A stretch of DNA of 64,000 bases from a virus (taxonomy: Duplodnaviria > Heunggongvirae > Uroviricota > Caudoviricetes), in the IMG/VR virus record IMGVR_UViG_2568526411_000004; one strand, given 5' to 3'. Position numbers and translations under genes: made by a program. Within the stretch, counting starts at the first letter, position 1; each line of letters opens with the position of its first letter. Positions 5,215 to 57,477 of the stretch are shown here, piece after piece. The notes under the pieces are model-generated. The model was given only the letters and a program-made list of their open reading frames with translations, was not told where the DNA came from and ran no database searches.

Positions 5215-5712
5215 TTAATTGTGCAAGTCGTCGTATGTTGCTTTGCTTCCATCAGAAAATTCTATTACACAATTTTCTAGGTCCACTATCATGCTATCAG
5301 TGCGCTTTAGCTCACTTCGATAATGTTGGATTTCTTCGTCATCTTCTTCATCTATGAGGTCAATTACATGTGCGCAGTAGTCTGTAATGTCGTTAATCTC
5401 TGCAACTGCTGCATATAGCGCTTTGTGTTGTTCGTGATTAAGATGTGATAAATCCATTGTGCTGAAGTATTCGTAGAAGTCCTTAATTGTCAAACCGTCG
5501 ACATACGTATAGTTTTTAGCTGATAGGTTTTTATTATCCGCATCTTCTTTAGAGTGAGAGCTATAGCGAAAAACACCCTCGTCATTCTTGTGACTTGGAC
5601 CGCACAGAGGAGATACGTTGTGTAGATATAAAGATATTATGCACGGTCGATCGAATCCTATAATTACTGCGTCATATCCTGATCTCGCTATACGGTGTGC
5701 TGTAACTTTCAT
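5215..5712 (-). CDS. hypothetical acidic protein (C-terminal DEEDDEE run)
   Basis: 165 aa with an ATG start; the conserved leader lies upstream. Confidence 0.55.
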   Translation of the reverse strand: MKVTAHRIARSGYDAVIIGFDRPCIISLYLHNVSPLCGPSHKNDEGVFRYSSHSKEDADNKNLSAKNYTYVDGLTIKDFYEYFSTMDLSHLNHEQHKALYAAVAEINDITDYCAHVIDLIDEEDDEEIQHYRSELKRTDSMIVDLENCVIEFSDGSKATYDDLHN

Positions 5713-8545: not shown

Positions 8546-9088
8546 TTAATAGTTTCGGTAAACCTTTCCTTCAGCTACAAGATAATCACTAATTAAAGCG
8601 TCGCGCCCGTAACGTTCATAGTCGAAATAACCTTGAATGTCCTCTGGTATTTCCAAAGCAGAACATTCATCAATTAAATAGCGTCCAAAATCATCGTCAT
8701 TTTCGTAGTCACACACGTAACGATCTTCGTGCCACTCTTTAACGTTTGACCAATCAGCATAGTTGCCTTCAACTAATGCAGCGTATGTGCCAACTTCTTT
8801 AACTTCATCAAGATCAAGGCTTACTAAAAACTCAATTAAAGTTTCAAGCATTTTGAATGATGAGACTTTTATCTCTTCGTTGGCCCAAGTGTCTTCTAGC
8901 TGCCAAAACTCTATCTCTACATCGCCTAACTCATCTATGAAGTCGTCGTATTCATCAAAGTAAAGGTTAAAACCGTGTTGATGCGTAAAGCTGAAGCCTT
9001 CTAAGCGAAAACGTTTCTTGTTATCAGGGTTAGAAAACTTCGCTAAAAACTGCTCTATAGTCACTTGATCGTTAGTTTCGTAAGTCAT
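8546..9088 (-). CDS. hypothetical highly acidic protein
   Basis: 180 aa, rich in D/E (DEYDDFIDELGD, YENDDDFG); ATG start with the conserved promoter and leader upstream. Confidence 0.6.
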   Translation of the reverse strand: MTYETNDQVTIEQFLAKFSNPDNKKRFRLEGFSFTHQHGFNLYFDEYDDFIDELGDVEIEFWQLEDTWANEEIKVSSFKMLETLIEFLVSLDLDEVKEVGTYAALVEGNYADWSNVKEWHEDRYVCDYENDDDFGRYLIDECSALEIPEDIQGYFDYERYGRDALISDYLVAEGKVYRNY

Positions 9089-9223: not shown

Positions 9224-9601
9224 TTAAAGACCATGATCTGTGGTCGTAAAATCACTGTAATAAAGAGCGTTAGTGGCGGTGTCTAAATGTATTTTGGAAG
9301 TCATTTCAAAATATTCTTCACTCTCTTCGCAAACTAATTGATTATATTCGGAGTAACCGTCGGCAATAAGAGCAACCGCCTTTATTACAGCATCTATGAA
9401 CTCTTGCTTGTATTCATCTAGGCGCATAGTGGTTTGTAGCTTTAAACCCGTTTCTGCACTTGTGTAGGTGTTCATGTGCTTATCTGGTTCGCCAATGTAT
9501 ATCTCAGCGAGATAAGGTTGATCTGCGGATATTATTGCGGTCTGAGCCTTATTAGAGAAAAGCTCGTTTACTGCGCGGTATATGGTGACGATTGGTTGCA
9601 T
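9224..9601 (-). CDS. hypothetical protein
   Basis: The ATG at 9601 (MQPIVTIYRAV) follows the leader immediately; the track start at 9670 lies upstream of the leader. Confidence 0.55.
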   Translation of the reverse strand: MQPIVTIYRAVNELFSNKAQTAIISADQPYLAEIYIGEPDKHMNTYTSAETGLKLQTTMRLDEYKQEFIDAVIKAVALIADGYSEYNQLVCEESEEYFEMTSKIHLDTATNALYYSDFTTTDHGL

Positions 9602-9610
9602 TATGTTTAA

Positions 9611-9640
9611 CTCTATTTGTTTCGATAGAGTAATTTTCAC
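9611..9640 (-). promoter_or_regulatory. conserved early leader GTGAAAATTACTCTATCGAAACAAATAGAGTTAAACATA-ATG
   Basis: CTCTAT...ATAGAG inverted repeat around CGAAACAA. Confidence 0.6.
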
Positions 9641-9795
9641 AATTGAAAATAGGGGAGACAAAGGCAACATACGTTGCCTTGTGTGTTAGCCATACTGCAT
9701 GCATTGCATGCAAACGCTGATATTTACATTGGTGCTGATTGAGTTTGCTGTGCATCCAAGTAATGCAACGCACGCCAAGATTATTACTAATGGCT

Positions 9796-10382: not shown

Positions 10383-11018
10383 CTAATCTTCATTAATGAC
10401 CTCCTGAGATTTGCCAGCCGTTTTAACCACAATGGAATACACAGGCTCAAAATACTCTCGCGTTCCCTCTTCATCTCCCCATTTGTACCCACCGTAATGC
10501 AAAGCTTCCACTGTTGATTGCGGCATTTTCTTAGGAATTGCGACATACCCATCTGGAATTTGTTTTGCATTATTAATCTGTGCATACAAATCTTGTCTTT
10601 CATCAAGCAATTCAGTGATTCGATCTTGAAGTTGTCCAACTTTAAAATCTTTTGATCTGTTTAATCTTTTTTCTTCAGCCAGTTCATCTAACAAGGAATC
10701 AATTTGTCGATAAAGGTTTTTCCAGTATTTATTAGGGTTTTCGTCATGATCTTTAAGAACCTCCCTAATTAATTGTTCTATATCTTCATCTGACATAAAC
10801 TCCTTGTCACCGTTCGCTTTTTGCTCTGTAAGCTGTCTGTTAATCTCAGCGTCCAGCAAATCACGGGTTGATGGGTGGCCAACCTTCTCACCTACCAGAT
10901 ACCGCAAGCGTTCATTTTCAGCCTGCAACTCAATCAACTCGCACGGCGTACCATGTCGACCGTCATGAAAGCCTGCTTTGTACGCTGCCTCTTTTATTTC
11001 TATTTGTTCATTCATCAC
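10383..11018 (-). CDS. hypothetical coiled-coil protein
   Basis: 211-aa ORF with charged heptad-like segments. Confidence 0.5.
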   Translation of the reverse strand: MMNEQIEIKEAAYKAGFHDGRHGTPCELIELQAENERLRYLVGEKVGHPSTRDLLDAEINRQLTEQKANGDKEFMSDEDIEQLIREVLKDHDENPNKYWKNLYRQIDSLLDELAEEKRLNRSKDFKVGQLQDRITELLDERQDLYAQINNAKQIPDGYVAIPKKMPQSTVEALHYGGYKWGDEEGTREYFEPVYSIVVKTAGKSQEVINED

Positions 11019-11455
11019 ATTAAGCCTTCTACAAAATCTCTAACTTCTTCAAAAACGTCAGTTCTAATGGAGTGTTCTATGCTTACGTTTTCTTCATACA
11101 GCCTTTGCTCTTCATTGAAGCCGTCTCTGCAAAACTTGAGAACCTTCTCTAGTGCCGACATCGCTGAACTAGGAATGGGTTGAGCGTCTATACTTTCCAC
11201 GTCAACAACAATGATGTTTTGCACGTCGTAATCTCTTAGTACTTCATCCAGAAGCGATACAGTCAAATCACTTGAACCTGCAAGTATGCTAGAAAAAATC
11301 TCTATACGATCTTCATTGGATAGCGTGTTAAGCTTCTCTTCATCGCGAAAGAACGCCATGAAGTCATCACGATTAAATGTGTCAGTCTGCATTTGTTTAA
11401 CTCTTGAAAACTTTCTTAAATTAATGATATTGAAAGTTTTTTGGATATTGCGCAT
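11015..11455 (-). CDS. hypothetical protein
   Basis: 146-aa ORF whose start/stop overlaps the neighbouring gene. Confidence 0.45.
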   Translation of the reverse strand: MRNIQKTFNIINLRKFSRVKQMQTDTFNRDDFMAFFRDEEKLNTLSNEDRIEIFSSILAGSSDLTVSLLDEVLRDYDVQNIIVVDVESIDAQPIPSSAMSALEKVLKFCRDGFNEEQRLYEENVSIEHSIRTDVFEEVRDFVEGLM

Positions 11456-11491: not shown

Positions 11492-12118
11492 TTAACCTGT
11501 GTACGGCTCAAGTTGCACATCGAAAACTTTCATTTCGAAATCCAACTCATCTGGAGTAAAGAAGTGTTCACTGTAAAGCCGGGCAGCTTCCGCCTGTGTT
11601 TCAGCCTTAATTTGAACTATCGCTGACGCTTTAAATTGCCACGTTGGTATTTTTGGCTCTTCAAGCGTAACGGGTCTGTTTGCAAACAATTTCATGTCAT
11701 GCGATGCGTTCGAGTCATCCAAAAACTTAACTACAGTTCGGTCTTCGCTGAGTTCGACAGTTTGGAATTGATCTACTATTGCCCAGTTATGCCCATCGCC
11801 ATCAATGAGTTGAATAAGCCTAATTTCAGTTTCAGGACTAGGGCCTAGCAAATTTTTACTCCACTTGATCGTCTCTGAGCCAACGGTGCCATAATCTGCC
11901 TGTTTTAATGCCTGCCAAAGTTTCATTATTGGTCCAACCTTTGTAATGCTCACTTCATCGTATATGCCTGAGTAAAAACCTTCCTCAAGAACAATCTTAA
12001 TCGGTCCTTCCGCGTAGGTTTCATCTTCCAAATACTCACGCGCCTGTTGAAGCGTGTCGACGGTCTTTTCGCCACAACGTTGTGTGTCTTTTTCAATCCA
12101 TTTAACTAAATATGGCAT
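11492..12118 (-). CDS. hypothetical protein
   Basis: 208-aa ORF. Confidence 0.5.
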   Translation of the reverse strand: MPYLVKWIEKDTQRCGEKTVDTLQQAREYLEDETYAEGPIKIVLEEGFYSGIYDEVSITKVGPIMKLWQALKQADYGTVGSETIKWSKNLLGPSPETEIRLIQLIDGDGHNWAIVDQFQTVELSEDRTVVKFLDDSNASHDMKLFANRPVTLEEPKIPTWQFKASAIVQIKAETQAEAARLYSEHFFTPDELDFEMKVFDVQLEPYTG

Positions 12119-12194: not shown

Positions 12195-12671
12195 TTAATC
12201 TGCTTCATTGCTCATTACCTTTTCTGCAATGCTTTTCTTCAATACCTTGCGGGCTTGTCTCATTGCGTATTTAGCTCTACTGTCACAATGATGGTTCGCT
12301 AAATAGCGGTTATCGGTTAATTTCGTATGACCTTTAACGTGTCGACATCTGAGCTTTAGTTCATACATTTTGGCGGTGTCTAATATGTGATTTAGAACAA
12401 CTGCAATGTCAGGACGAACCTTGCACTTACCGCTAAGGCAGAAGAGAACACCCTCGTTGTCTACTTGAATTAAAACCTCATCACCTTTTGAGATAAGCCC
12501 GGCATTGATAGACGCCTGCAAAGAGTTAGCTACGCCTTTAAATTCCGCCTCGTAGCTGTCTTTAACAACGCCTTTAATAATGTTCCCACCCGCACGTTTG
12601 CCTCTGTCTGACGCGCACCAGTATCCAAACCCAGCGGCGCCAGTTTTGTGACAAAGCGAGGCATCAGTCAT
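12195..12671 (-). CDS. rnh: RNase H (RNase HI-like)
   Basis: MTDASLCHKTGAAGFGYW resembles the RNase HI N-terminus (FTDGSC.GNPG); HVKGHTKLTDNRYLANHHCDSRA resembles VKGHAGHPENERCDELA. The start is set at the ATG at 12671. Confidence 0.6.
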   Translation of the reverse strand: MTDASLCHKTGAAGFGYWCASDRGKRAGGNIIKGVVKDSYEAEFKGVANSLQASINAGLISKGDEVLIQVDNEGVLFCLSGKCKVRPDIAVVLNHILDTAKMYELKLRCRHVKGHTKLTDNRYLANHHCDSRAKYAMRQARKVLKKSIAEKVMSNEAD

Positions 12672-13200
12672 TAATGTCACTAGCATAAGAGTGGTCCAAC
12701 TCTTCAAAAACAAGGTCGTCTAACTGCTCTTCTTTGAATCCAAAGTTATTAACAAGGCATTGACGAGCGGTTGCTTCATTTTTGAATATGCAAATTTGCT
12801 TTGAATCATCCAAAATGTATTCAAGACCGTTAATTGATACGCCTTCAATATGTCGACCAACACGAACAGGTGGCGCAACTTTAAATAATGGATCTGCGCC
12901 AATGAATACTTCATCAGGAATGTTGTTCCAGTTACGACGAAGAATGTCGAACTCACCTTCGTTCCAATAGTTCAAAAATTCCATTGCGTCATCGGTGCCA
13001 TCCACATTGTCACTTAATATGTATTGGATAACAGCAAGAGCCGGGTCGTTAGTGCGCTCTTTTATTTCGACGATTAGATTTTCTTTGGCGGACTTAAACT
13101 CTTCCTCAATGATTGCGTGATCTTCGAGTGGTTGACTGCCAATGTTTTCATGTGCGCGAGTGGCTGATTCAAACGCATATACAAGGTCAATTAGGCTCAT
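12664..13200 (-). CDS. hypothetical acidic protein
   Basis: 178-aa ORF. Confidence 0.5.
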   Translation of the reverse strand: MSLIDLVYAFESATRAHENIGSQPLEDHAIIEEEFKSAKENLIVEIKERTNDPALAVIQYILSDNVDGTDDAMEFLNYWNEGEFDILRRNWNNIPDEVFIGADPLFKVAPPVRVGRHIEGVSINGLEYILDDSKQICIFKNEATARQCLVNNFGFKEEQLDDLVFEELDHSYASDIND

Positions 13201-13863: not shown

Positions 13864-15066
13864 TTAGAAATTAACTACACGTTCGTCTTTGTTAAGGTAG
13901 CTGAAGGTCGGACTTGCCTGAACGGTCACAACCACGTCATGCTCCTTGTCAGTCAAGGTAAAGACACGCGTTTTAGGGTCAAACTCACACTTGACGTCAT
14001 TTGGTTTAACAATGCGGTGATATGGCTCAAGCTCAATAAATTTATCTTCAGCCATAAAGCCGATGCACTGTTTAGCATCGCCGTTTTCGTCTTCCCAAAG
14101 TTTGCCATCGTCGGTTTTTCGGAAACCATTAGGTCGAATCATTAAACGGAACTCAAATGTATCGTCTGTCATCATTCGTTCGATGTAGTCCGCATCAAAG
14201 TAAGTGAAGTCAAATGAATCCGAAACGTCATAACCTTTGTAGGTTGCTTCTTTTTGAAGGCGAATATCATCATAAGAAATGGTAGGTTTAATATTTAAAA
14301 ACTTGCCTAGATCGCGGACTGAAATGTTTTGACCTTCTGATTTATTAATTTCCTTAATTAAGATGGTCAACATATCCATGTTGAACATTGAGAAACGCCC
14401 TACGTATTCAAGAATTTCGTCGATGCGATCTTTGTTTATTAGTACGTCGTTTGCATATTCGCGAATGGTTGACTCGCTGATGCTGCCAAAGTGTATGTTG
14501 TAATAAACACGACCCGGACGGTTATGGAAGTACTCATAGCGCGAGCTGCGAGAATCCGCATTCATAGTGAGAATGAAAAGTGTGTGCATTGGGTACATGC
14601 CATCAAGAAGTGTTAGCATGTCATTAACTTGTTCTGGCTTGGTGTAAACCTTGTCGAACTCATCAATGAAAACAATTTTTTGTTGGTTAATTTTTTGAAG
14701 GAAGCCTTTGTAGTCATCACCGACATAGGCTTCACTTTGTAAAATGCAAATACCGCCACTTTTCACAAAATCAACGCATAGCTTTTTAGCTAATAGAGTT
14801 TTACCTGTACCCTTAAAACCTTCAAGCATGATAGTTGTGGGTATTTCTGTGCGCTCATTGAAGGTTTCCATGATGCGGTCTTGATGTTGGTAGGCGTTAC
14901 CATACGCTTTCGGAATTAATGTAAGCGGGTTGGTGATTTGAAGGTAGAAACCGAGCTTGTCATGAAAACATAAGCGGTAAAAACCAGCAGGCAAGCTATC
15001 AATAGCGACGCCACTTACATCTGGAGCTAAGTGATAAGTGTCGTTTTGGCGAAGATATTGTGTCAT
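13864..15066 (-). CDS. AAA+ ATPase
   Basis: Walker A GFKGTGKT, Walker B IVFIDEFDK, sensor 1 TMN and arginine NRPGR are present. The N- and C-terminal domains are unassigned. Confidence 0.7.
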   Translation of the reverse strand: MTQYLRQNDTYHLAPDVSGVAIDSLPAGFYRLCFHDKLGFYLQITNPLTLIPKAYGNAYQHQDRIMETFNERTEIPTTIMLEGFKGTGKTLLAKKLCVDFVKSGGICILQSEAYVGDDYKGFLQKINQQKIVFIDEFDKVYTKPEQVNDMLTLLDGMYPMHTLFILTMNADSRSSRYEYFHNRPGRVYYNIHFGSISESTIREYANDVLINKDRIDEILEYVGRFSMFNMDMLTILIKEINKSEGQNISVRDLGKFLNIKPTISYDDIRLQKEATYKGYDVSDSFDFTYFDADYIERMMTDDTFEFRLMIRPNGFRKTDDGKLWEDENGDAKQCIGFMAEDKFIELEPYHRIVKPNDVKCEFDPKTRVFTLTDKEHDVVVTVQASPTFSYLNKDERVVNF

Positions 15067-15751: not shown

Positions 15752-16141
15752 TTACCATGCATTCTTTGTGTTTGTGACCATTTTCTTTGGCGCTTCGACT
15801 TTAGAGGTTGTTATAGGGTTCTTTCTTTGAACGCCCTCTACATTTAAAAAGTCAAAACTTACGCGCCACTCAAGACCCGGATTGGCACTATCGCTCGTTT
15901 CAACTACCGTTGCTGTTTTGGTGTTTATTTTGGTGATGCGAACTCGTCGATTGACGCCCTTTCGGGAATCAACAAAAGTTGCATATCGCCCAACTTCAAT
16001 ACTGTAATCTATACGAGATTCTATTTCTTGCTTTACCCCTTCTTGAAGTTGGAAAAGGGCCTCTGTAGATAATTTCTTCAAAACACTTAAATTCATAATT
16101 GGCACCCGAATTTGAGGAAGGCGAACCCTCCTAATCATCAC
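15752..16141 (-). CDS. hypothetical protein
   Basis: 129-aa ORF. Confidence 0.45.
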   Translation of the reverse strand: MMIRRVRLPQIRVPIMNLSVLKKLSTEALFQLQEGVKQEIESRIDYSIEVGRYATFVDSRKGVNRRVRITKINTKTATVVETSDSANPGLEWRVSFDFLNVEGVQRKNPITTSKVEAPKKMVTNTKNAW

Positions 16142-16144
16142 TGA

Positions 16145-17098
16145 TTAAAGCTCTGGAAATAATTCGCTTTTGATCTTCATCAAAAGAAGAGAGTTTGGAT
16201 TAGGCACTAAGCGACCCTGTTCATCTTTCAAGGCAATTTTGAGCATCGGTAACATTTGCATCATCTGACCGCTCTGTGCGCTTGCAGTACCAGGAGAGTA
16301 AGGCTTTGCAAGAAGATTTGAATACAAGTTACCCGTTTTCTTTGTTGTGATATAACCGTCTTTCAACAAAACGCCAAAAGTACGATGCATAACAACATTT
16401 AATTCACCGCCATTCTTCAACCATGTGAAGAGTTGAACGATTTTTTCAGCAACCTTCTTTTGAGTCGTAATAGACGAACCTGAACCCGGACGCGCATTAA
16501 GAATGTTTAACAATTCTTGCTGTCTAGCTTTTAAAGCTTCTGGATCTTTTTCAAGTAATTCAGCATCTTCAACTTCAAGTAGAAGGTGGTCATAAGCATC
16601 GTCGCCTAATCGAGACAACAAAACAGCCGATACTTTGCTATTTTGATATGTTGTTCGATAAGTAGACGGTGAAGCTTCGCGCTGATTCTCTTGATTTTTA
16701 GCGGCTTCAGTCTCTTTTTTAGTCTTTTTAGACTTCTTTTCGACCTTCTTCTCTTCAGTGGAAACTTCTGTAACCGCTAAAGATAAGTCGAGTGCGGATG
16801 CATCAAAATCAGTATCTTCAATCAGACCTTCGAGAGTATCTTGTGGTTCAGTCGCTACTTGTTCAGTTTTAACTTCTGTTTGTGTGGCAACCTCTTCAAC
16901 TAAAGATGCATCTAATTGAAGATCTTCAATGGATAAAGCAGCGTCGTCTATGCTTGCTTCGGTCGTTTGAGCTGTAGAACCTTGACCATCAAGAACATTG
17001 ATTAAATCAGTTAAATCAGTTGTTTCATCAAAAAGCTGTTCAAGAAAAACTTCATCTTGTTGAATGTTTGCTTGAGCTGTCATGTTTACCTCATTCAT
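16145..17098 (-). CDS. hypothetical protein with ~120-aa highly acidic N-terminal region and Lys-rich linker
   Basis: 317 aa. The ATG at 17098 follows the conserved promoter and leader (TTTTTTGTCCAA...CATAAT...ATCGAAACAA). Confidence 0.6.
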   Translation of the reverse strand: MNEVNMTAQANIQQDEVFLEQLFDETTDLTDLINVLDGQGSTAQTTEASIDDAALSIEDLQLDASLVEEVATQTEVKTEQVATEPQDTLEGLIEDTDFDASALDLSLAVTEVSTEEKKVEKKSKKTKKETEAAKNQENQREASPSTYRTTYQNSKVSAVLLSRLGDDAYDHLLLEVEDAELLEKDPEALKARQQELLNILNARPGSGSSITTQKKVAEKIVQLFTWLKNGGELNVVMHRTFGVLLKDGYITTKKTGNLYSNLLAKPYSPGTASAQSGQMMQMLPMLKIALKDEQGRLVPNPNSLLLMKIKSELFPEL

Positions 17099-17125
17099 TG
17101 CGTTGTTTCGATGAATGAATTATGA
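17099..17125 (-). promoter_or_regulatory. conserved early leader TTCATTCATCGAAACAACGCA-ATG
   Basis: Leader-family member. Confidence 0.55.
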
Positions 17126-17201
17126 CTAACCGCCGTTGGACAAAAAATAGATTTTGATGGCGAGCTGCAAAGGTCGCCTTGAGCAAGATTTGGTCAACTT
17201 A

Positions 17202-17912
17202 CTAAGCGCAATTCAACTCTTCGTTTTTAAGTGGAGCATCATATGAAACGGGCTTAAACGTATTACAGCATTCGTAAATGCTTGTTGAGCCTACTGGATC
17301 TGAGATCACTAGCGTTCCATCTTGACGTTGCATGAAATTACCCGTGTGGAGGTCGGGAAATGCATCGGAATTTTGCTTCAAAAATTTAGCCATTGTTAAA
17401 AAACTCATGCTAAGCGATGGGTGATCTTTTAAATGGTCATCAAACGCCAAATCCATTAAGCAAGTGATATTTCGCTCATGGCGGTCATCAATAAAGCTAC
17501 AACCATTTAGAATGCGTAATTTTTTACAAATACGATTCACCAATGAGCGATTAGGCCCCTTAACAGGTAGCTTATGAAGTCGTTCAACCTCATACAAGTA
17601 CATCGGTACAGGCATGGTTTTGGGTTGAGTAATAGCAGTCTTGCTAATGTTTTTGCCAACAATAAATTCACCCACTTTGCCAAAGTCCCGGATAGGCCGA
17701 GTGAAATGATTACTCTCGCGAGATAGAGAGTAGGGGCCAAACAATGACTCATAACCCATAGCGTCAATACTTAGTTTTAAAACCGTATCTGAATTACCGC
17801 TTTCGTAGACACCTGAGAACTGTCCACGCGCAATCAATTTTTTCCCTTTGAGTGCGCTATGAGTGTTTCTAACCGTCTTCACGCTTTGATCGTTTAAAAT
17901 AAAAATGTTCAT
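17202..17912 (-). CDS. protein-kinase-like fold protein
   Basis: Gly-rich loop ARGQFSGVY, VLKL lysine, catalytic-loop-like DLHTGNFMQRQDG and ISDPVG (DFG-like). Confidence 0.45.
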   Translation of the reverse strand: MNIFILNDQSVKTVRNTHSALKGKKLIARGQFSGVYESGNSDTVLKLSIDAMGYESLFGPYSLSRESNHFTRPIRDFGKVGEFIVGKNISKTAITQPKTMPVPMYLYEVERLHKLPVKGPNRSLVNRICKKLRILNGCSFIDDRHERNITCLMDLAFDDHLKDHPSLSMSFLTMAKFLKQNSDAFPDLHTGNFMQRQDGTLVISDPVGSTSIYECCNTFKPVSYDAPLKNEELNCA

Positions 17913-18000: not shown

Positions 18001-18252
18001 TCAAAATTGATGATCTAAATAATCTGCATATGCAACTGATTTTCTACTCTTTTCCATTAATAGCAGAATTATTTTACTACGCAAACTTATTGGAATAGGG
18101 CGTTCTTCCGCCATCCATTGTCTTACTCTGCTTGAGTCCACATCAATCGCGCGAGCCAATTCTGTTTGCCATTGAGTGCCGTAAAGTATCTCACCTGCCT
18201 GTTTTAACTCTTCGGGCGACATGCGAGAGGCTTCAGAATCAAGGTTATCCAT
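18001..18252 (-). CDS. Cro/YdaS-like HTH regulator
   Basis: TQWQTELARAIDVDSSRVRQWMAEERPIP matches an XRE/Cro-type HTH. The ATG at 18252 is used; the track start is a TTG. Confidence 0.55.
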   Translation of the reverse strand: MDNLDSEASRMSPEELKQAGEILYGTQWQTELARAIDVDSSRVRQWMAEERPIPISLRSKIILLLMEKSRKSVAYADYLDHQF

Positions 18253-18440
18253 GTTCAATCCTATGATTTGTCAGCCGATAAAGAAAAAGCAATTAGATTT
18301 TTCCAATTGCCTTTCCCCCAACTTAACTAAGTTATCTCATCGTTTTCCTATCTTTCGATAGGCTCGAAACAAACAAACAAGATAAAGAGAGTTTTACAAC
18401 TCATTGGATAAATATAACCGCATGAATCGCTAGGGTCAAG

Positions 18441-22301: not shown

Positions 22302-23121
22302 GGCACTGTTGCAAAGTTAGCGATGAGGCAGCCTTTTGTCTTATTCAAAGGCCTTACATTTCAAAAACTCTGCTTACCAGGCGCATTTCGCCCAGGGGAT
22401 CACCATAATAAAATGCTGAGGCCTGGCCTTTGCGTAGTGCACGCATCACCTCAATACCTTTGATGGTGGCGTAAGCCGTCTTCATGGATTTAAATCCCAG
22501 CGTGGCGCCGATTATCCGTTTCAGTTTGCCATGATCGCATTCAATCACGTTGTTCCGGTACTTAATCTGTCGGTGTTCAACGTCAGACGGGCACCGGCCT
22601 TCGCGTTTGAGCAGAGCAAGCGCGCGACCATAGGCGGGCGCTTTATCCGTGTTGATGAATCGCGGGATCTGCCACTTCTTCACGTTGTTGAGGATTTTAC
22701 CCAGAAACCGGTATGCAGCTTTGCTGTTACGACGGGAGGAGAGATAAAAATCGACAGTGCGGCCCCGGCTGTCGACGGCCCGGTACAGATACGCCCAGCG
22801 GCCATTGACCTTCACGTAGGTTTCATCCATGTGCCACGGGCAAAGATCGGAAGGGTTACGCCAGTACCAGCGCAGCCGTTTTTCCATTTCAGGCGCATAA
22901 CGCTGAACCCAGCGGTAAATCGTGGAGTGATCGACATTCACTCCGCGTTCAGCCAGCATCTCCTGCAGCTCACGGTAACTGATGCCGTATTTGCAGTACC
23001 AGCGTACGGCCCACAGAATGATGTCACGCTGAAAATGCCGGCCTTTGAATGGGTTCATGTGCAGCTCCATCAGCAAAAGGGGATGATAAGTTTATCACCA
23101 CCGACTATTTGCAACAGTGCC
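22302..23121 (-). mobile_element. IS26: IS26 copy 2, complete, inverted relative to copy 1
   Basis: GGCACTGTTGCAAA at 22302-22315 is the reverse complement of the right end; TTTGCAACAGTGCC is at 23108-23121. The flanking 8-mers AAGAACTC and ACTACAAC differ, so there is no simple TSD. Confidence 0.95.
22354..23076 (-). CDS. tnp26: IS26 transposase
   Basis: The 240-aa protein is identical to the one encoded at 46-768. Confidence 0.95.
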   Translation of the reverse strand: MLMELHMNPFKGRHFQRDIILWAVRWYCKYGISYRELQEMLAERGVNVDHSTIYRWVQRYAPEMEKRLRWYWRNPSDLCPWHMDETYVKVNGRWAYLYRAVDSRGRTVDFYLSSRRNSKAAYRFLGKILNNVKKWQIPRFINTDKAPAYGRALALLKREGRCPSDVEHRQIKYRNNVIECDHGKLKRIIGATLGFKSMKTAYATIKGIEVMRALRKGQASAFYYGDPLGEMRLVSRVFEM

Positions 23122-51759: not shown

Positions 51760-53817
51760 TTACTTGAGAAGTAATGAGCGAAGCTCGCCAATAACCGTGT
51801 TAGGTAAGTCGGCAACAGATCTCAAAACGACATTTTTTGGATAGAACTCTTTTACGCTTTGCGTATTGATTCCAATTCCAATAACTTCAAATCCTGAGCG
51901 AGAAATTTCCTGAACGGTTGTTTTGAGGTGTTTGTTTAGCGTTGGGGTCGGGCCGCTACCATTTGGATTACCATCACTTAACACCATAATGATTTTCCGT
52001 GCTTCTTTTTGAGCGCTTAGCCGCTGTGCCGCAATTTGAAGACACTCCCCATCAACATTCGTGTTTAAGAACCTAACATGAGGCAACCATGCAAAACGAT
52101 GGCGGTTTTCGAGCGTTAAGCGCTCATTAAACCCTTTAATGACTGGCATATATAAACCTTCCGTTCTTGTGTATCGAATCGTTTTGCCATTATGCGTAAA
52201 GCTTTCTTTTGCGTGTGGATCACCGTTTTTAGTTGTGAATCCAATAACTTCATGATTAATGTTGAGACGGTCAAGAACAGATGACATTGCATATGACGCT
52301 TGAGAGGCTGTGTTAATGCGTTCGCCCTTCATTGAACCTGAACAGTCAATTAAGAGGGTTACAGCGACATCTTTGGAACGATTCTCTTGTTTGCGACGGA
52401 ATATACGGTCGTCTCTAACAGCTAAACGAGAAAGTGACGCCTGGTTAATTTTTCCTTGCCGTAAACCGTTCTCCCATGTTCTTGCTGATCGAGCAACCAT
52501 AAGACGTTCCAAATCTTTTTGAATTGTTCCCGTAATTTTATTGGTTGCTCTATCTAAATCATCCATAAAGGACGATTTGTAATTTCTGCCAATTTTTAAT
52601 GTTTCGATAACGTCATATCTGTTTGTATAAACGAGATATGGCGCAGTGCAAGCAAAGTCTTTTGCTTCATTGCTTAACTGAACGGCAAACGAGGCGTCAA
52701 AATCATTCGCTGACTCCTTGTCGATCTCTTGCAAAATCGCCTTAGCGTCTAAATTAAGCTTTCTTAATTCCTTTTTCTTTTCTGACGTCTGATTCTCAGA
52801 GTCGCTAGACTCGTTGCCTTCATTGCTGTCGCCCTTACCATTCGATTTGTCAGACTTATTTTGGTGGCGCTCACTTTTACCATCTGATTCGTTCCCACCA
52901 TCCTCATCTTCGGATTGACCGCCTTTACCTCCATCACCTTGTTCGTCTTGCTCATCAGCATCGCCTGAAGACTCACCGGCACCATCTTCTTCAGAATCGC
53001 CATCATCTCCCTCACCAGCGCCTTGCTGACCGTCTGCATCTGAACCTTCATCTTCGTCAGAATTTCCGCCACCTGAGCCGCCTGGTTGCTCATCTTCATC
53101 TTCGTTAGATTGACCATTTCCTTGTTGATCACATTCTTCTTCCTGTTGTTGATCTTGCGGGGGTTGTTTCTCGTCTTCGGGACTTTTTAGAGCTTTGTAA
53201 ATTTCTTTAGCTAAGCGAACGGCATCCTGAGACGACTGCATTGATTGAAGTTGTGGCGCAAGGTGTTTGATGGCAGCATGAATATTTGGCAACAAATGAA
53301 TCTTGTCGCGCATATAAATTTCAAAAGTTGATTGACCCGAAAGGCTGCGGAGATATGGAGTGGCCAAGATACCCATAATCTTTGTTTCATCAACATCGGG
53401 ATGCGCCATAACTTCTTTAAATTTCGGAGTAATCATCTCTTCTAAAAAGAAGTGTGCGGTGTGATCTAAGTTAGAACCAGAACCTCTAAATTTTTCAGCC
53501 ATGCATTTTTCGATGCGGGCGTCTTCTAAAATATTTGCGAGACTTTTTAAAAGGTAATCGCCAACGCTATTTAGGGCTTTAAAATCAGAGAAAAGAACAT
53601 GTGCAACCTCATGATCTAAGAATCCCTGTATTGCTCTTATAAGTTCTTCTGATGCATTGTCCGAAAGGTACGGTAAATTGATAGAAATCGGATTTCCATT
53701 AATGTCAGACTTGACGTATGCTTCCATACCTATTTGAGTTACTTCAATTTTTTTCTCAATGAGAGCATTTGTGATTGCAACGATAGCGTTGCGTAAATTA
53801 GCAATGCGATTGTTCAT
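51760..53817 (-). CDS. CobT-like vWA-domain protein with long acidic/Gly-rich low-complexity insert
   Basis: vWA MIDAS LLIDCSGSM; central D/E/G/S-rich region. Confidence 0.65.
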   Translation of the reverse strand: MNNRIANLRNAIVAITNALIEKKIEVTQIGMEAYVKSDINGNPISINLPYLSDNASEELIRAIQGFLDHEVAHVLFSDFKALNSVGDYLLKSLANILEDARIEKCMAEKFRGSGSNLDHTAHFFLEEMITPKFKEVMAHPDVDETKIMGILATPYLRSLSGQSTFEIYMRDKIHLLPNIHAAIKHLAPQLQSMQSSQDAVRLAKEIYKALKSPEDEKQPPQDQQQEEECDQQGNGQSNEDEDEQPGGSGGGNSDEDEGSDADGQQGAGEGDDGDSEEDGAGESSGDADEQDEQGDGGKGGQSEDEDGGNESDGKSERHQNKSDKSNGKGDSNEGNESSDSENQTSEKKKELRKLNLDAKAILQEIDKESANDFDASFAVQLSNEAKDFACTAPYLVYTNRYDVIETLKIGRNYKSSFMDDLDRATNKITGTIQKDLERLMVARSARTWENGLRQGKINQASLSRLAVRDDRIFRRKQENRSKDVAVTLLIDCSGSMKGERINTASQASYAMSSVLDRLNINHEVIGFTTKNGDPHAKESFTHNGKTIRYTRTEGLYMPVIKGFNERLTLENRHRFAWLPHVRFLNTNVDGECLQIAAQRLSAQKEARKIIMVLSDGNPNGSGPTPTLNKHLKTTVQEISRSGFEVIGIGINTQSVKEFYPKNVVLRSVADLPNTVIGELRSLLLK

Positions 53818-54468: not shown

Positions 54469-54778
54469 GGACTTTCTACATTGCCATATTGTAATTTTTT
54501 CCTTTTTTGACTAAAAAAAATAACAAAAAATCTGGAAAAAATTAGTCCATTCAATCGAATACACTTTGCATTCGCTGCATCTAGTTTGTAAACTTGGGCG
54601 TATATAATTCACGAGTGACTGATTTTTTCTATAAAATTAGTCCCCCCACCACCTATAATAGTGCTGTAATTCAAAATCAGTCAGTTCTGAGTATATATTT
54701 GGTCTCATGTTCTGGATTATTACAAAGTGAATTACGACTCATCATAGGAAAAATTTAACTCTGTATTTGGAGAGGCAA

Positions 54779-55243
54779 ATGGCTAAAAATCGCAACAATA
54801 TGAACGTGGCAGAATATCTCGCAGACTTAATCGAGAATTCTCCTAAAAGCCAGCGTGAGATTGCTGAGGAAATAGGTTTTAAACGCCCTAACGTTTTATC
54901 GATGATTAAGAGTGGTGAAACTCGCTTACCGATCGATAAAATCAAGCCTACCGCTTTAGCATTAGGCGAAAACCCTACTCGCCTTCTTATACGCGTTCTA
55001 AAAGAATATGCACCGGACTTAATTGATGTTGTCGAGTCAATCACTGGGCAAACTCCATTAACCCCTAACGAAATTAATATCGTCAAAACTATTCGCAGTG
55101 TAACTATGGAAGACCCTTCTTTTTATGGAGACACTCGTGACAAGTTTGTTGACGTAATTAAGGAAATGGAAAGCGAGACAATTAAGCACCGCGCTGAGCT
55201 TCAAAAAAATAAGGAGGAATCGGCATTCAGATCTCAGAAATGA
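54779..55243 (+). CDS. XRE-family HTH transcriptional regulator
   Basis: SQREIAEEIGFKRPNVLSMIKSGE HTH; ATG with a GGAGAGG SD. Confidence 0.7.
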   Translation: MAKNRNNMNVAEYLADLIENSPKSQREIAEEIGFKRPNVLSMIKSGETRLPIDKIKPTALALGENPTRLLIRVLKEYAPDLIDVVESITGQTPLTPNEINIVKTIRSVTMEDPSFYGDTRDKFVDVIKEMESETIKHRAELQKNKEESAFRSQK

Positions 55244-55316: not shown

Positions 55317-55607
55317 AATACTTGGCTAACTTTTCGCATATTCACTTCCTCTTACTTTTTCCCAAACTTGAAAACGTTACAAATTCAAATTTAGCACAGC
55401 TTATCCATTAAAATCCATCATTAAAATAGCTGCATATTCAGAAAAGTCTGTATACGTCGAATGATGACGCACTTTCGTTGTTTCGTCCATAAAAAATATA
55501 ATAAAAGGCTTCTTTTATTACATTTTTTATTTTTCGACATGTGGTAGACTGTTTTTATATCCTTTCCGTTTTTGGAAAAATGTAATAAAAAATTATTTGG
55601 TCGATTT

Positions 55608-56195
55608 ATGGCAAGAACAACAACTGGAAAAGCCCCATATGTGTCAGAAGATGATCTTGAGATTACTTTAGCCACTCAAACGGGCGTAAATGCATTACGG
55701 AACAAATGTGTTTTGTATTTCTCACACTTCCTTGGGCTTCGCGCTAAAGAATTATCAATGTTAAAGGTCGGCGATGTTTACGATGTGAAGAAGGGTAAGC
55801 TGAAGGATATTATTCGATTGCTCGGTAATATTACTAAAGGCAACCGCTACCGAGAGGTATTCCTGGTCAATCCAATCGCTAGATCACTGGTAGAAGAATA
55901 CATAACAAAAGAAAGACCAAAGGATCCAGACGCACCTTTATTTTTATCGCAGAAGGGCGGTCCATTCTCACCAAATAGCATGGTGACCATGATTAATAAC
56001 TGTTATAAGAAGGCTGGTATTCAAGCAACCAGCCATTCCGGTCGACGTTCCTTTGCCACAAGGCTAATAAGAAAGGGCGGTGATATTTATTCAATTCAAC
56101 AATTGATGGGGCATAGCTCAATCCTGACCACGCAAAAATATTTTGCATCGGATCCGGAATTGCTCCGCAGTATAGCCGAGAAATTAAACGACTAA
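55608..56195 (+). CDS. small tyrosine recombinase (catalytic domain only; FimB/FimE-like size)
   Basis: The HSGRRSFATRL (HxxR) and LMGHSSILTTQKY (catalytic Tyr) motifs. An alternative start is at 55572. Confidence 0.8.
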   Translation: MARTTTGKAPYVSEDDLEITLATQTGVNALRNKCVLYFSHFLGLRAKELSMLKVGDVYDVKKGKLKDIIRLLGNITKGNRYREVFLVNPIARSLVEEYITKERPKDPDAPLFLSQKGGPFSPNSMVTMINNCYKKAGIQATSHSGRRSFATRLIRKGGDIYSIQQLMGHSSILTTQKYFASDPELLRSIAEKLND

Positions 56196-56254: not shown

Positions 56255-56396
56255 TGTATTTTAAATACTATCTTTATGGTCTTATTTACAACTTAGCATC
56301 ACGTCTTACAGCGCTTCTAGTTTACAACTTCTATTCAATTCACTAGAATGATTCTGTTTTATAGGCGTTTATGCCAACTTAACTAAGGAAATTTTG

Positions 56397-57074
56397 ATGA
56401 TTATCGTGTACGCCAATACAAAAGGCGGCGTGAGCAAAACAACTCTTGCCACATCTACTGTGGCCGCGCTGCACCAAAGAGGTAACACTGTTATCGGTAT
56501 TGACCTAGATGCCAACAAAGGCTCTTTCGAATGGAGCCAAGCACGAGAAGCCGAAAACGAAGTAGAAAACGGTAAATTTTTTCATTTAACAGGCAATATC
56601 GAAGACGAAGCTCGTCGCTTAAATGAAGAATATGATTACGTCGTAATTGACACGCCGGGATATGACTCTGCCGAAATGCGCTCGGCTCTTTTAGCTGCGG
56701 ACGTTATTGTTTCGCCTCTTAAAGTTGGAGCTCAAGATCTCAAAGGGCTTTATACGCTTTTGGATTTAGTTGATTTGATCAATGACACTGTTCGCAAACC
56801 GGCTGGCGAGAACCCAATTGTCGTGCATCCTGTTATTACCCAAGCTCCTGCGGCCGATAATTCAGTTGATTTACGCGACACCATTAAAGCACTTGAAGCG
56901 ATTCAAAACGAAGCCCCACGTCTTCAAACAATTATGCGTTTACGTATGCCATATAGCCGCGCTTATCGAAACAACGTCGGCATTACTGAAATGGAAATGG
57001 ACGTAAACAATCGAGTTGCAATTAAAGAATTTGAACAGTTACTTGAGGAGATCATTGAAAATGGCAAACGATAA
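56397..57074 (+). CDS. parA: ParA partition ATPase (type Ib, no N-terminal HTH)
   Basis: Deviant Walker A KGGVSKTT. Confidence 0.85.
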   Translation: MIIVYANTKGGVSKTTLATSTVAALHQRGNTVIGIDLDANKGSFEWSQAREAENEVENGKFFHLTGNIEDEARRLNEEYDYVVIDTPGYDSAEMRSALLAADVIVSPLKVGAQDLKGLYTLLDLVDLINDTVRKPAGENPIVVHPVITQAPAADNSVDLRDTIKALEAIQNEAPRLQTIMRLRMPYSRAYRNNVGITEMEMDVNNRVAIKEFEQLLEEIIENGKR

Positions 57075-57477
57075 AAATGCACCATTGCCTCAGCGTGCAG
57101 CACGCGAAGCTAAAGAGTCTATCTTAAATTCCGCTCCTGTAGCAGCTCAACCTTTAGCGCCAAAAGTTGAAGCTCCGCAAGTAGAAGAACCTGAAGCTGA
57201 AGTGGTTGAAGTTCAACAAAAAGCAACTGAAGCGACTAACTTTCTAAACGACGCAGCACCGTGGCGTAAAAAGTCCACAATGTCTGAAGAAGAGTTGATG
57301 CTTGCAACCAAGAAGTTTTCAGCAAACCTTCCGATGGAATTATATTTAAGACTCAACTTTATTGTTGCTATTGAGCAGTTAAATAGTCCAAAAAAACTTG
57401 ACATGACGCAGATTGTGACTAAAGCTCTAATGGAGAGTACAGAAAAGACTCTCAAAAAAATGGGTTACAAGGTCTAA
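57061..57477 (+). CDS. small ParB/ParG-like centromere-binding protein
   Basis: 138 aa, immediately downstream of parA and overlapping it. Confidence 0.5.
   Translation: MANDKNAPLPQRAAREAKESILNSAPVAAQPLAPKVEAPQVEEPEAEVVEVQQKATEATNFLNDAAPWRKKSTMSEEELMLATKKFSANLPMELYLRLNFIVAIEQLNSPKKLDMTQIVTKALMESTEKTLKKMGYKV

Follow-up and report, generated by a model that had tools for sequence, protein, structure and literature searches.

A predicted kinase of the T7 gp0.7 family and a winged-helix protein with an acidic tail, encoded side by side in an Acinetobacter baumannii phage-plasmid

Phage T7 encodes in its early region two proteins that bear on the locus described here, the protein kinase gp0.7 (T7K) and the acidic protein Ocr (gp0.3). 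A Nature paper published in 2026 showed that the T7 kinase disarms many bacterial defence systems via mass phosphorylation and that its homologues come chiefly from T7-like lytic phages (Autographiviridae, 46 clusters at 80% identity), apart from 2 clusters of jumbophage origin and a few members in prophages (PMC13645617). According to the same paper, the motif DPV is a hallmark of T7K homologues, G76F is a catalytic mutant of T7K, and the C-terminal shut-off (SO) domain has been lost in distant jumbophage and prophage homologues (PMC13645617). JSS1_004, a phage kinase homologous to T7K and highly similar to it by the account in PMC13645617, antagonises Dnd defence (PMC12345140, as cited in PMC13645617); it is a T7K-family precedent for the anti-defence function proposed below. 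Ocr is a folded dimer with a subunit of 117 aa that mimics bent DNA.

We analysed a window of 64,000 nucleotides, which belongs to a temperate phage-plasmid of Acinetobacter baumannii from the AB group, a phage-plasmid group that has been described before (PMC7969092). A. baumannii "plasmids" of 107-113 kb are 100% identical to the window over the 6 kb that were tested, and the window encodes phage replication genes as well as a ParA-type partition/recombinase module at 56394-57477, away from the locus at 16145-17912. The carriers of the kinase clade described below include plasmids of multidrug-resistant A. baumannii, which also bear IS26 and, in relatives, genes for macrolide resistance. The locus is part of a block of genes on the same strand that also encodes a DnaQ-like exonuclease and an AAA+ ATPase with weak matches of the Orc/Cdc6, DnaC/IstB and clamp-loader type. 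Scans of this DNA for promoters and terminators yielded a number of sites no higher than in shuffled sequence, and a literature search returned no paper joining 'T7 kinase' and 'phage-plasmid'.

The earlier note had proposed a kinase-like gene at 17202-17912 and an acidic-protein gene at 16145-17098; both were confirmed as minus-strand open reading frames at these positions. The product of 17202..17912 is a 236-aa protein that consists of a kinase domain only, and the glycine loop, the VLKL lysine and the DLHTGN motif described in the note are all present in it. Conservation and the alignment with T7 gp0.7 place the Gly-rich loop G30-Q-F-S-G34-V35 and the beta3 Lys of V44-L-K46-L-S-I-D50 in codons 26-50 (17763..17837, minus strand), and the catalytic loop D187-L-H189-T-G-N192 and the Mg-binding D205-P206-V207 in codons 185-208 (17289..17360, minus strand). 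The S-D205-P-V downstream of DLHTGN is an additional motif that the note had missed, and the polypeptide stops 29 residues past DPV. The Gly-loop, VLKL, DLHTGN and SDPV vary little or not at all among 21 close homologues; in 87 diverse homologues there is no variation at G30, D187, N192 and D205, and V35, V44 and K46 are conserved in at least 90%. The family profile finds 583 cluster representatives (50% identity, E <= 1e-3), mostly of 190-250 aa, and DP[VILF] is found in 123 of 160 single-domain members. Structure prediction, which the note had named as a check, gave a bilobal protein-kinase-like fold with high confidence (pLDDT 90.3), and the top fold matches of this model are all protein kinases or related kinase-like enzymes.

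The link to T7 gp0.7 needs a deep profile for its detection, and identity in aligned columns is only about 21%. With hhalign, the 87-sequence kinase profile aligned to gp0.7 over 141 columns with the motifs in register (Prob 96.8%, E 2.6e-10); a control protein gave a Prob of 0.04%, and a shallow profile of 21 sequences found gp0.7 weakly (Prob 18.6%). G30 is thereby matched with T7K G76 and K46 with T7K K93, DLHTGNFM with DMHSGNIM (D187/H189/N192 with T7K D195/H197/N200), and D205-P206-V207 with T7K D213-P214-V215, so that both proteins have DPV for DFG. The spacing of D187 to N192 (+5) and to D205 (+18) is the same as that of D195, N200 and D213 in T7 gp0.7, and both proteins are phage-encoded and share a protein-kinase-like fold. 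An hmmscan against PHROG returned two T7 gp0.7 kinase families, phrog_15752 as a local match (E 1.5e-5) and phrog_2828 (E 0.004), which contradicts the earlier statement that the kinase fits no known family. Its characterization as a kinase is supported, and more specifically than proposed, since the deep family profile detects T7 gp0.7 with all catalytic motifs aligned. The 17202-17912 product is most plausibly a new and divergent representative of the known T7 gp0.7 (T7K) kinase family.

Other searches were less informative. Pfam and NCBIfam scans of the 236-aa kinase gave no family match, and precomputed Pfam data showed none for the kinase, its 20 closest relatives, P0052 or P0063; the family member P0055 has a precomputed match to PF27024 Phage_T7_kinase. 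A Pfam scan of 87 family members produced a single weak match (Kinase-PolyVal, E 0.0069). A PDB sequence search with the kinase and winged-helix family profiles returned nothing significant; Mer kinase was aligned in register, but with an E of about 1.4. Megablast and tblastn searches of a phage collection with the region and the kinase gave no match, and this collection seems to be without close relatives. A profile search of genome contigs (alignment A1) found one locus only, in A. sichuanensis.

The kinase differs from T7K in several respects. It has 236 aa, compared with 359 aa in T7 gp0.7, and is without the C-terminal SO/DNA-binding domain. The autoinhibitory Ser216, which directly follows DPV in T7K, is replaced by Gly (G208); this Gly is invariant in close homologues, and in the wider family mostly A, G, C or F follows DPx. 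Its carriers are a temperate phage-plasmid of about 110 kb and genomes of siphovirus size, whereas T7K belongs to Autographiviridae. Depletion of Ser/Thr/Tyr, which a promiscuous kinase might leave as its mark, was absent in the neighbouring proteins (15.4% vs 14.1%, a weak and indirect proxy). A hyper-promiscuity of the T7K style is not supported by this comparison. By analogy, we predict a small stand-alone protein kinase of the Ser/Thr type, distantly related to T7K, that upon phage gene expression would phosphorylate host and possibly also phage proteins and would thereby redirect host machinery or disarm defence proteins, acting with neither the DNA-binding/SO domain nor the Ser216 autoinhibitory site of T7K.

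The gene at 16145..17098 (minus strand; phrog_3932, E 1.4e-151) is a 317-aa open reading frame for an acidic disordered tail, a Lys-rich linker and a C-terminal winged helix. Translation probably begins at the second ATG, at 17083; GAGG lies 5 nt upstream of it, and PGAP uses the same start, giving 312 aa. An N-terminus of about 120 residues dominated by Asp and Glu had been reported; residues 1-120 are clearly acidic, but 'dominated' is an overstatement, as they contain 31 D+E and 3 K+R (26% acidic, vs 13.7% in the window's proteins). The most acidic stretch of 115 residues has a net charge of -27 and ranks 3rd among 65 minus-strand open reading frames. On the basis of pLDDT and composition, the acidic, disordered region comprises residues 1-115 (16754..17098, minus strand). 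The Lys-rich linker that had been noted after it is real: by composition it comprises residues 116-142, KKVEKKSKKTKKETEAAKNQENQREA (16673..16753, minus strand), with 10 K+R in residues 121-160 and EKKVEKKSKKTKKE at residues 115-128, and a basic or mixed-charge linker is found in most homologues. Disorder is predicted for the N-terminal ~145 residues, with a pLDDT below 50 at residues 37-99 and 102-143 and of about 50-59 at residues 4-36. Between homologues, the sequence and length of the tail vary and its acidity is kept (mean D+E 25%, K+R 4%, median net charge -17 in 126 members), and a short amphipathic acidic motif near its N-terminus is conserved. The tail also holds an internal duplication of 108 nt (36 aa), with direct repeats D1/D3/D5 that are 108 nt apart.

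The conserved part of the protein is the slightly basic C-terminal domain (residues 150-317; 16145..16651, minus strand), which is helical with a winged helix-turn-helix core and is predicted with pLDDT block means of 80-97 over residues about 161-317. It contains the invariant motifs QKKVAEK and KPYSxGTxxxQxxQ, and polar or basic positions such as K214, K215, K219, K265, Y267, S268, T271, Q275 and Q278 are conserved. Among the matches listed, all 120 homologues of at least 240 aa have the two-part architecture and a length of 245-315 aa. Comparison with Pfam, NCBIfam and PDB sequences gave no family match, the 318 homologues carry no functional annotation (all are 'hypothetical'), and within the phage collection only Nickievirus and Stenotrophomonas phages match. 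The fold of this domain resembles that of MarR/ArsR/PadR-type winged-helix DNA-binding proteins, DNA binding being putative here. Because the putative recognition helix has zero Lys/Arg, the winged helix could bind protein rather than DNA. DNA-binding proteins with acidic auto-inhibitory tails include HMGB1, T7 gp2.5 and sigma70 region 1.1, and the layout of acidic tail, basic linker and nucleic-acid-binding fold is the same here. Compared with known winged-helix proteins, this one is in no known sequence family and has its acidic tail, of about 115 residues, at the N-terminus. With low confidence, we propose that the protein acts on DNA to regulate or organise the transcription or replication of the phage. 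Its winged helix and Lys linker would make the contacts to DNA, and the acidic tail would auto-inhibit this binding or recruit a partner.

On the same low-confidence reading, the winged-helix protein probably has a small partner, the product of the next gene downstream. The gene usually found right behind the winged-helix gene is that of a 114-aa protein (15752..16096, minus strand; phrog_10017), which lies directly 3' of the winged-helix homologue in 23 of 50 IMG/VR loci and also in L003, L004, L061 and L063. Directly upstream of the kinase gene and on the same strand is an open reading frame for an 85-aa HTH protein (18001..18258, minus strand) that matches phrog_3626 (E 1.1e-44) and has weak Pfam matches under the cut-offs to YdaS_toxin (E 6e-4) and P22_Cro (E 0.037); it is possibly a local regulator. 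Of 50 related viral loci, only 4 have the kinase and winged-helix genes next to each other, in several distant lineages; the two genes are on the same strand and at most 10 kb apart in 24, and in about half of the 50 no kinase-like gene lies within 10 kb of the winged-helix gene. A divergent 219-aa gene upstream in L004 was rejected as a kinase, the real kinase homologue at that locus being 3.2 kb upstream.

The earlier note had also called the proteins encoded at 8546-9088 and 5215-5712 extremely acidic. This applies to the former, which has a pI of 4.10 and a net charge of -29 and is at the top of the 65 open reading frames, but not to the latter, which ranks only 9th (pI 4.80, net charge -16), with several open reading frames that had not been flagged being more acidic. 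The 8546..9088 product (minus strand) is the antirestriction protein ArdA, from a known DNA-mimic family: it matches Pfam PF07275 with an E of 8.8e-12 and 46.3 bits at a gathering cut-off of 27 and the anti-restriction families of PHROG with E values of 1.1e-11 and 2.1e-6, and its RefSeq product name is already 'antirestriction protein ArdA'. Because this is a standard ArdA, the assertion that none of the candidates can be placed in a known family by sequence is wrong, and all four proteins match PHROG families (E 1e-112 to 1e-151). Its suspected role as a DNA mimic was right in kind, though as an ordinary ArdA that Pfam and RefSeq already recognize. The 5215..5712 gene (minus strand; phrog_8815) encodes a moderately acidic protein of 165 aa with no family match in Pfam or NCBIfam. 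For the remaining acidic or unknown open reading frames of the block, PHROG gave no anti-defence annotation. ArdA is the only recognisable anti-restriction DNA mimic in the block; it is encoded 8 kb away from this locus and is unrelated to the 16145-17098 product.

The earlier note had read the locus as an early anti-restriction and host-takeover cassette in which an Ocr-like mimic blocks type I R-M or BREX next to a gp0.7-like kinase. The N-terminal region is indeed strongly acidic and its acidity is conserved family-wide, the adjoining gene is truly gp0.7-like, and a true DNA-mimic gene, that of ArdA, is in the same block; like Ocr, the product is acidic and phage-encoded. However, homology to Ocr was rejected (hhalign Prob 2.7%), the acidic region is predicted to have no stable structure and no fixed charge pattern of the kind expected of a DNA mimic, and a 312-aa protein with a disordered, variable tail and a conserved winged helix differs from a 117-aa folded dimer. 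The resemblance to the T7 gene arrangement is loose at best: the neighbour is gp0.7-like, but transcription reaches the kinase gene first and the acidic gene second, rather than the reverse, and their adjacency is rare. The 16145-17098 product is not a folded DNA mimic and is not Ocr-like, and we consider the cassette as originally conceived very unlikely. Also very unlikely is a two-gene version of T7K, in which the SO-less kinase would receive its DNA targeting in trans from the winged-helix protein, which would sit on DNA and whose acidic, Ser/Thr-rich tail might recruit the kinase or become phosphorylated. If true, a temperate phage-plasmid of a clinical pathogen would focus its kinase activity on those host defence proteins that are bound to DNA. 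The two genes do share a strand within 10 kb in 24 of 50 loci, but in about half of the loci the winged-helix gene is without a nearby kinase. The winged-helix protein was also rejected as a homologue of the SO domain (Prob 0.3%).

An origin-binding replication initiator of the lambda O type, or a plasmid partition or centromere-binding protein, would account for the winged-helix domain of the 16145-17098 product, whose structural matches include TubR and MukF, for its occurrence in one block with the DnaQ-like exonuclease and the AAA+ ATPase, and for the confinement of its family to elements of about 105-115 kb with their own DnaE-type replicase. We nevertheless hold this to be unlikely, as no iterons, operators or other repeated sites were found in or near the gene except the coding duplication, and there is no match to Rep, ParB or any other family. 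Partition is weakened further by the ParA-type module elsewhere in the window. Because the family is also present in Nickievirus phages, which were deposited as linear phage genomes, a plasmid-specific partition role is disfavoured, although this does not count against an initiator. As for the 236-aa protein, it might not be a protein kinase but a pseudokinase, or an enzyme that phosphorylates small molecules, as the kinases of aminoglycosides, choline and Kdo do. Enzymes of the APH/choline-kinase type have the motif H-G-D-x-H-x-x-N, to which the D-L-H-x-G-N loop is similar, and Foldseek matches include APH(9), APH(3''), APH(4) and AceK. Because the protein ends ~30 residues past DPV, it is without the activation segment that eukaryotic-type protein kinases typically have. 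We judge this alternative to be improbable. The reading that we prefer, an A. baumannii phage-plasmid with a T7K-like kinase, a winged-helix protein that is no mimic and ArdA as the sole recognisable DNA mimic, is likely to be correct as a whole.

The winged-helix protein with its acidic tail is a conserved, wholly uncharacterised gene product of this phage lineage, for which annotation as an anti-restriction DNA mimic is unwarranted. The SO-less kinase clade to which the 17202-17912 product belongs is much larger and more divergent than the T7K relatives found in PMC13645617. If its members are active kinases, host takeover and anti-defence based on phosphorylation would be far commoner among phages than documented, and in the phage-plasmid the kinase would need to be silenced during lysogeny in the plasmid state.

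The ORF at 17202-17912 was found on the minus strand as described in the earlier note, and its product carries all three motifs reported there (the glycine loop, the VLKL lysine and the DLHTGN loop), followed downstream by S-D-P-V. Each of the four motifs is invariant across 21 homologues that share 37-87% identity with it. An AlphaFold2 model based on a 21-sequence alignment was confident (pLDDT 90.3, pTM 0.84), and the 50 matches listed in a Foldseek search against the PDB were all protein kinases or related kinase-like enzymes, including AceK, aminoglycoside kinases, MLKL, PknB and CK2. The best E-value was 2.6e-4 and scores were moderate, consistent with a minimal, divergent kinase. A profile search over 1.84 billion cluster representatives identified 583 relatives at E<=1e-3, 175 of them at E<=1e-10, and the majority are stand-alone proteins of 190-250 aa. 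Across an alignment of 87 diverse family members, G30, D187, N192 and D205 are invariant, and conservation is 90% or higher at V35, V44, K46, E110, M194 and R196. The start chosen by PGAP in RefSeq gives a 226-aa product and drops ten residues that are kept in homologues (MxIFxLxD; window 17883-17912).

Comparison of the 87-sequence profile with the T7 gp0.7 protein kinase (T7K) using hhalign resulted in a probability of 96.8% (E 2.6e-10) over 141 columns, covering gp0.7 residues 65-217, with all catalytic elements in register: G30 corresponds to G76, K46 to K93, D187-L-H-T-G-N192 to D195-M-H-S-G-N200, and I-S-D205-P-V to I-T-D213-P-V. An unrelated control protein reached 0.04%. Because a shallow 21-sequence profile yielded just 18.6%, the kinship is remote and visible only with depth. 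The PHROG family of T7 gp0.7 also matches the kinase-like protein locally (E 1.5e-5), and a precomputed match to Pfam PF27024 'Phage_T7_kinase' is present in P0055, an intermediate family member, and in none of the closest relatives. DPV at T7K residues 213-215 is the hallmark that stands in for DFG in T7K homologues, and G76F served as the study's catalytic mutant (PMC13645617). The same study showed that pervasive phosphorylation by T7K disarms defence systems and that the C-terminal shut-off (SO) domain, which is lost in distant homologues, steers the kinase to nucleic-acid-binding proteins (PMC13645617). In contrast to T7K, the kinase-like protein has no SO domain, and the autoinhibitory Ser216 is replaced by Gly. 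The kinase call thus holds and, given the fold and the T7 gp0.7 alignment, can be sharpened to the SO-less clade of the T7K family; we file the protein as a divergent, kinase-domain-only member. We infer that it is active as a kinase and serves anti-defence or host takeover. Ser/Thr/Tyr depletion was not seen in the proteins neighbouring the kinase-like gene.

The ORF at 16145-17098 (minus strand) was also found as described: its first 120 residues contain 31 Asp+Glu versus 3 Lys+Arg, and the reported Lys-rich linker follows (EKKVEKKSKKTKKE). Compared over the most acidic 115-residue stretch of each of 65 ORFs, this one comes third. Translation probably begins at the second ATG (17083), where GAGG precedes the codon by 5 nt and where PGAP also places the start; the first ATG (17098) has no ribosome-binding site. 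The protein has no match in Pfam, NCBIfam or PDB sequences, and its PHROG families, 3932 and 5235, are both without known function. AlphaFold2 gave pLDDT below 50 for nearly all residues 1-147 and ten-residue block means of 80-97 for residues 161-317. A profile of the C-terminal winged-helix domain recovered 318 relatives at 90% clustering. Among the best 120 of these, sizes are mostly 245-315 aa, all source-named proteins are 'hypothetical' except for one DUF3558 label, and many lie on 105-115 kb contigs, some of them from E. coli, Cupriavidus, Ralstonia and Paraburkholderia. The N-terminal region is acidic in all of 126 family members (mean D+E 25%, K+R 4%, median net charge -17) and varies in sequence and length; the C-terminal domain is conserved and slightly basic. 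A 108-nt (36-codon) stretch is duplicated within the tail (16754-16822 versus 16862-16930, minus strand), with units reading IEDLQLDAS...TEVKTE and IEDTDFDAS...TEVSTE, which suggests that the tail grows by tandem duplication.

The proposal that this protein is an Ocr-like DNA mimic was not borne out. Similarity to Ocr (T7 gp0.3) is absent (probability 2.7%), and the suggested structure-prediction check was negative, the acidic region being predicted as disordered. Because the tail is disordered, non-conserved and joined to a conserved winged-helix domain, it does not have the appearance of a folded DNA mimic. Similarity to the T7K SO domain is likewise absent (0.3%). Tentatively, the protein may be a DNA-bound regulator or organiser, with a tail that would either hold back its own DNA binding or bring in a partner; a role as origin-binding initiator is a strong competing explanation. 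Partition is an unlikely function because the ParA module sits elsewhere in the window and the winged-helix family is also present in Nickievirus phages. This plasmid-maintenance module, on the opposite (plus) strand in the window's lowest-GC stretch (35%), encodes an HTH protein (54767-55243), a tyrosine recombinase (55572-56195) and a ParA/MipZ ATPase (56394-57074). A small ORF that overlaps within it (57016-57477) is a candidate for the centromere-binding partner.

The T7-like arrangement proposed earlier differs in gene order, since the kinase gene precedes the acidic gene here, whereas Ocr precedes gp0.7 in T7. In Pseudomonas phage hairong, the kinase homologue is directly upstream of the acidic-protein homologue (hhalign probabilities 98.1% and 99.7%, respectively). 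We surveyed 50 IMG/VR loci encoding the winged-helix protein with flanks of up to 10 kb and found a kinase homologue in 24, on the same strand every time (adjacent in 4, upstream by 0.9-4.5 kb in 17 and downstream in 3). Linkage is much tighter for the gene of a 114-aa protein (15752-16096, minus strand; phrog_10017, no Pfam), which is the next gene downstream of the winged-helix gene in 23 of the 50 loci. The conserved same-strand block comprises an SPFH protein, a DnaQ-like exonuclease, the kinase, the winged-helix protein and a small protein; by these counts, the kinase and acidic genes are members of one conserved block and not an obligate pair. An AAA+ ATPase of 400 aa (13864-15066, minus strand; phrog_2376) resembles the ATPase domains of clamp loaders, RuvB, Orc1/Cdc6, IstB and ClpX only weakly and in scattered fashion, and at the related locus L003 its gene directly follows the kinase gene.

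Because long ORFs between ~3.4 and 27.8 kb are nearly all on the minus strand, the transcription order is kinase-like gene, acidic protein and then, ~8 kb further downstream, ArdA (8546-9088). The earlier note held that its candidates fit no known family, which is incorrect for the kinase-like protein, with its T7 gp0.7 PHROG match, and for 8546-9088, which scores above threshold for Pfam ArdA and already carries that name in RefSeq. Its description of two further proteins as extremely acidic applies to ArdA, the most acidic ORF (pI 4.10), but not to the unassigned 5215-5712 protein, which is moderate (pI 4.80, rank ninth). Unflagged ORFs of the same block at 12664-13200, 11015-11455, 9224-9670 and 11492-12118 (minus strand; pI 4.27-4.57) are as acidic or more so, with PHROG families all of unknown function, and the window's single most acidic 115-residue stretch (net -35) belongs to a CobT-like 685-aa protein (51760-53817, minus strand). 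Two IS6/IS26-family transposase ORFs in inverted orientation (46-768, plus; 22354-23076, minus) with identical Pfam scores enclose a 21.6-kb segment that includes the kinase, winged-helix and ArdA genes. The IS26 layout is not constant between variants: in NZ_CP031445, a related plasmid, it is msr(E)/mph(E) that the IS26 copies flank.

The 6 kb around the kinase and acidic genes is 100% identical in 27 Acinetobacter baumannii plasmids of 105-114 kb, and PLSDB classifies 32 of 33 matching plasmids as non-mobilizable. Elsewhere, the window has phage-type genes for replication and recombination (DnaE-type polymerase, ribonucleotide reductase, SbcCD, a UvsX-like protein, DNA ligase and a CobS/CobT-like pair). 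The element matches the 'AB' phage-plasmid group, kin of the SSU5 supercommunity (PMC7969092). With the kinase-like protein, a kinase family that recently drew attention for its anti-defence role now reaches into the temperate phage-plasmids of a clinical pathogen.
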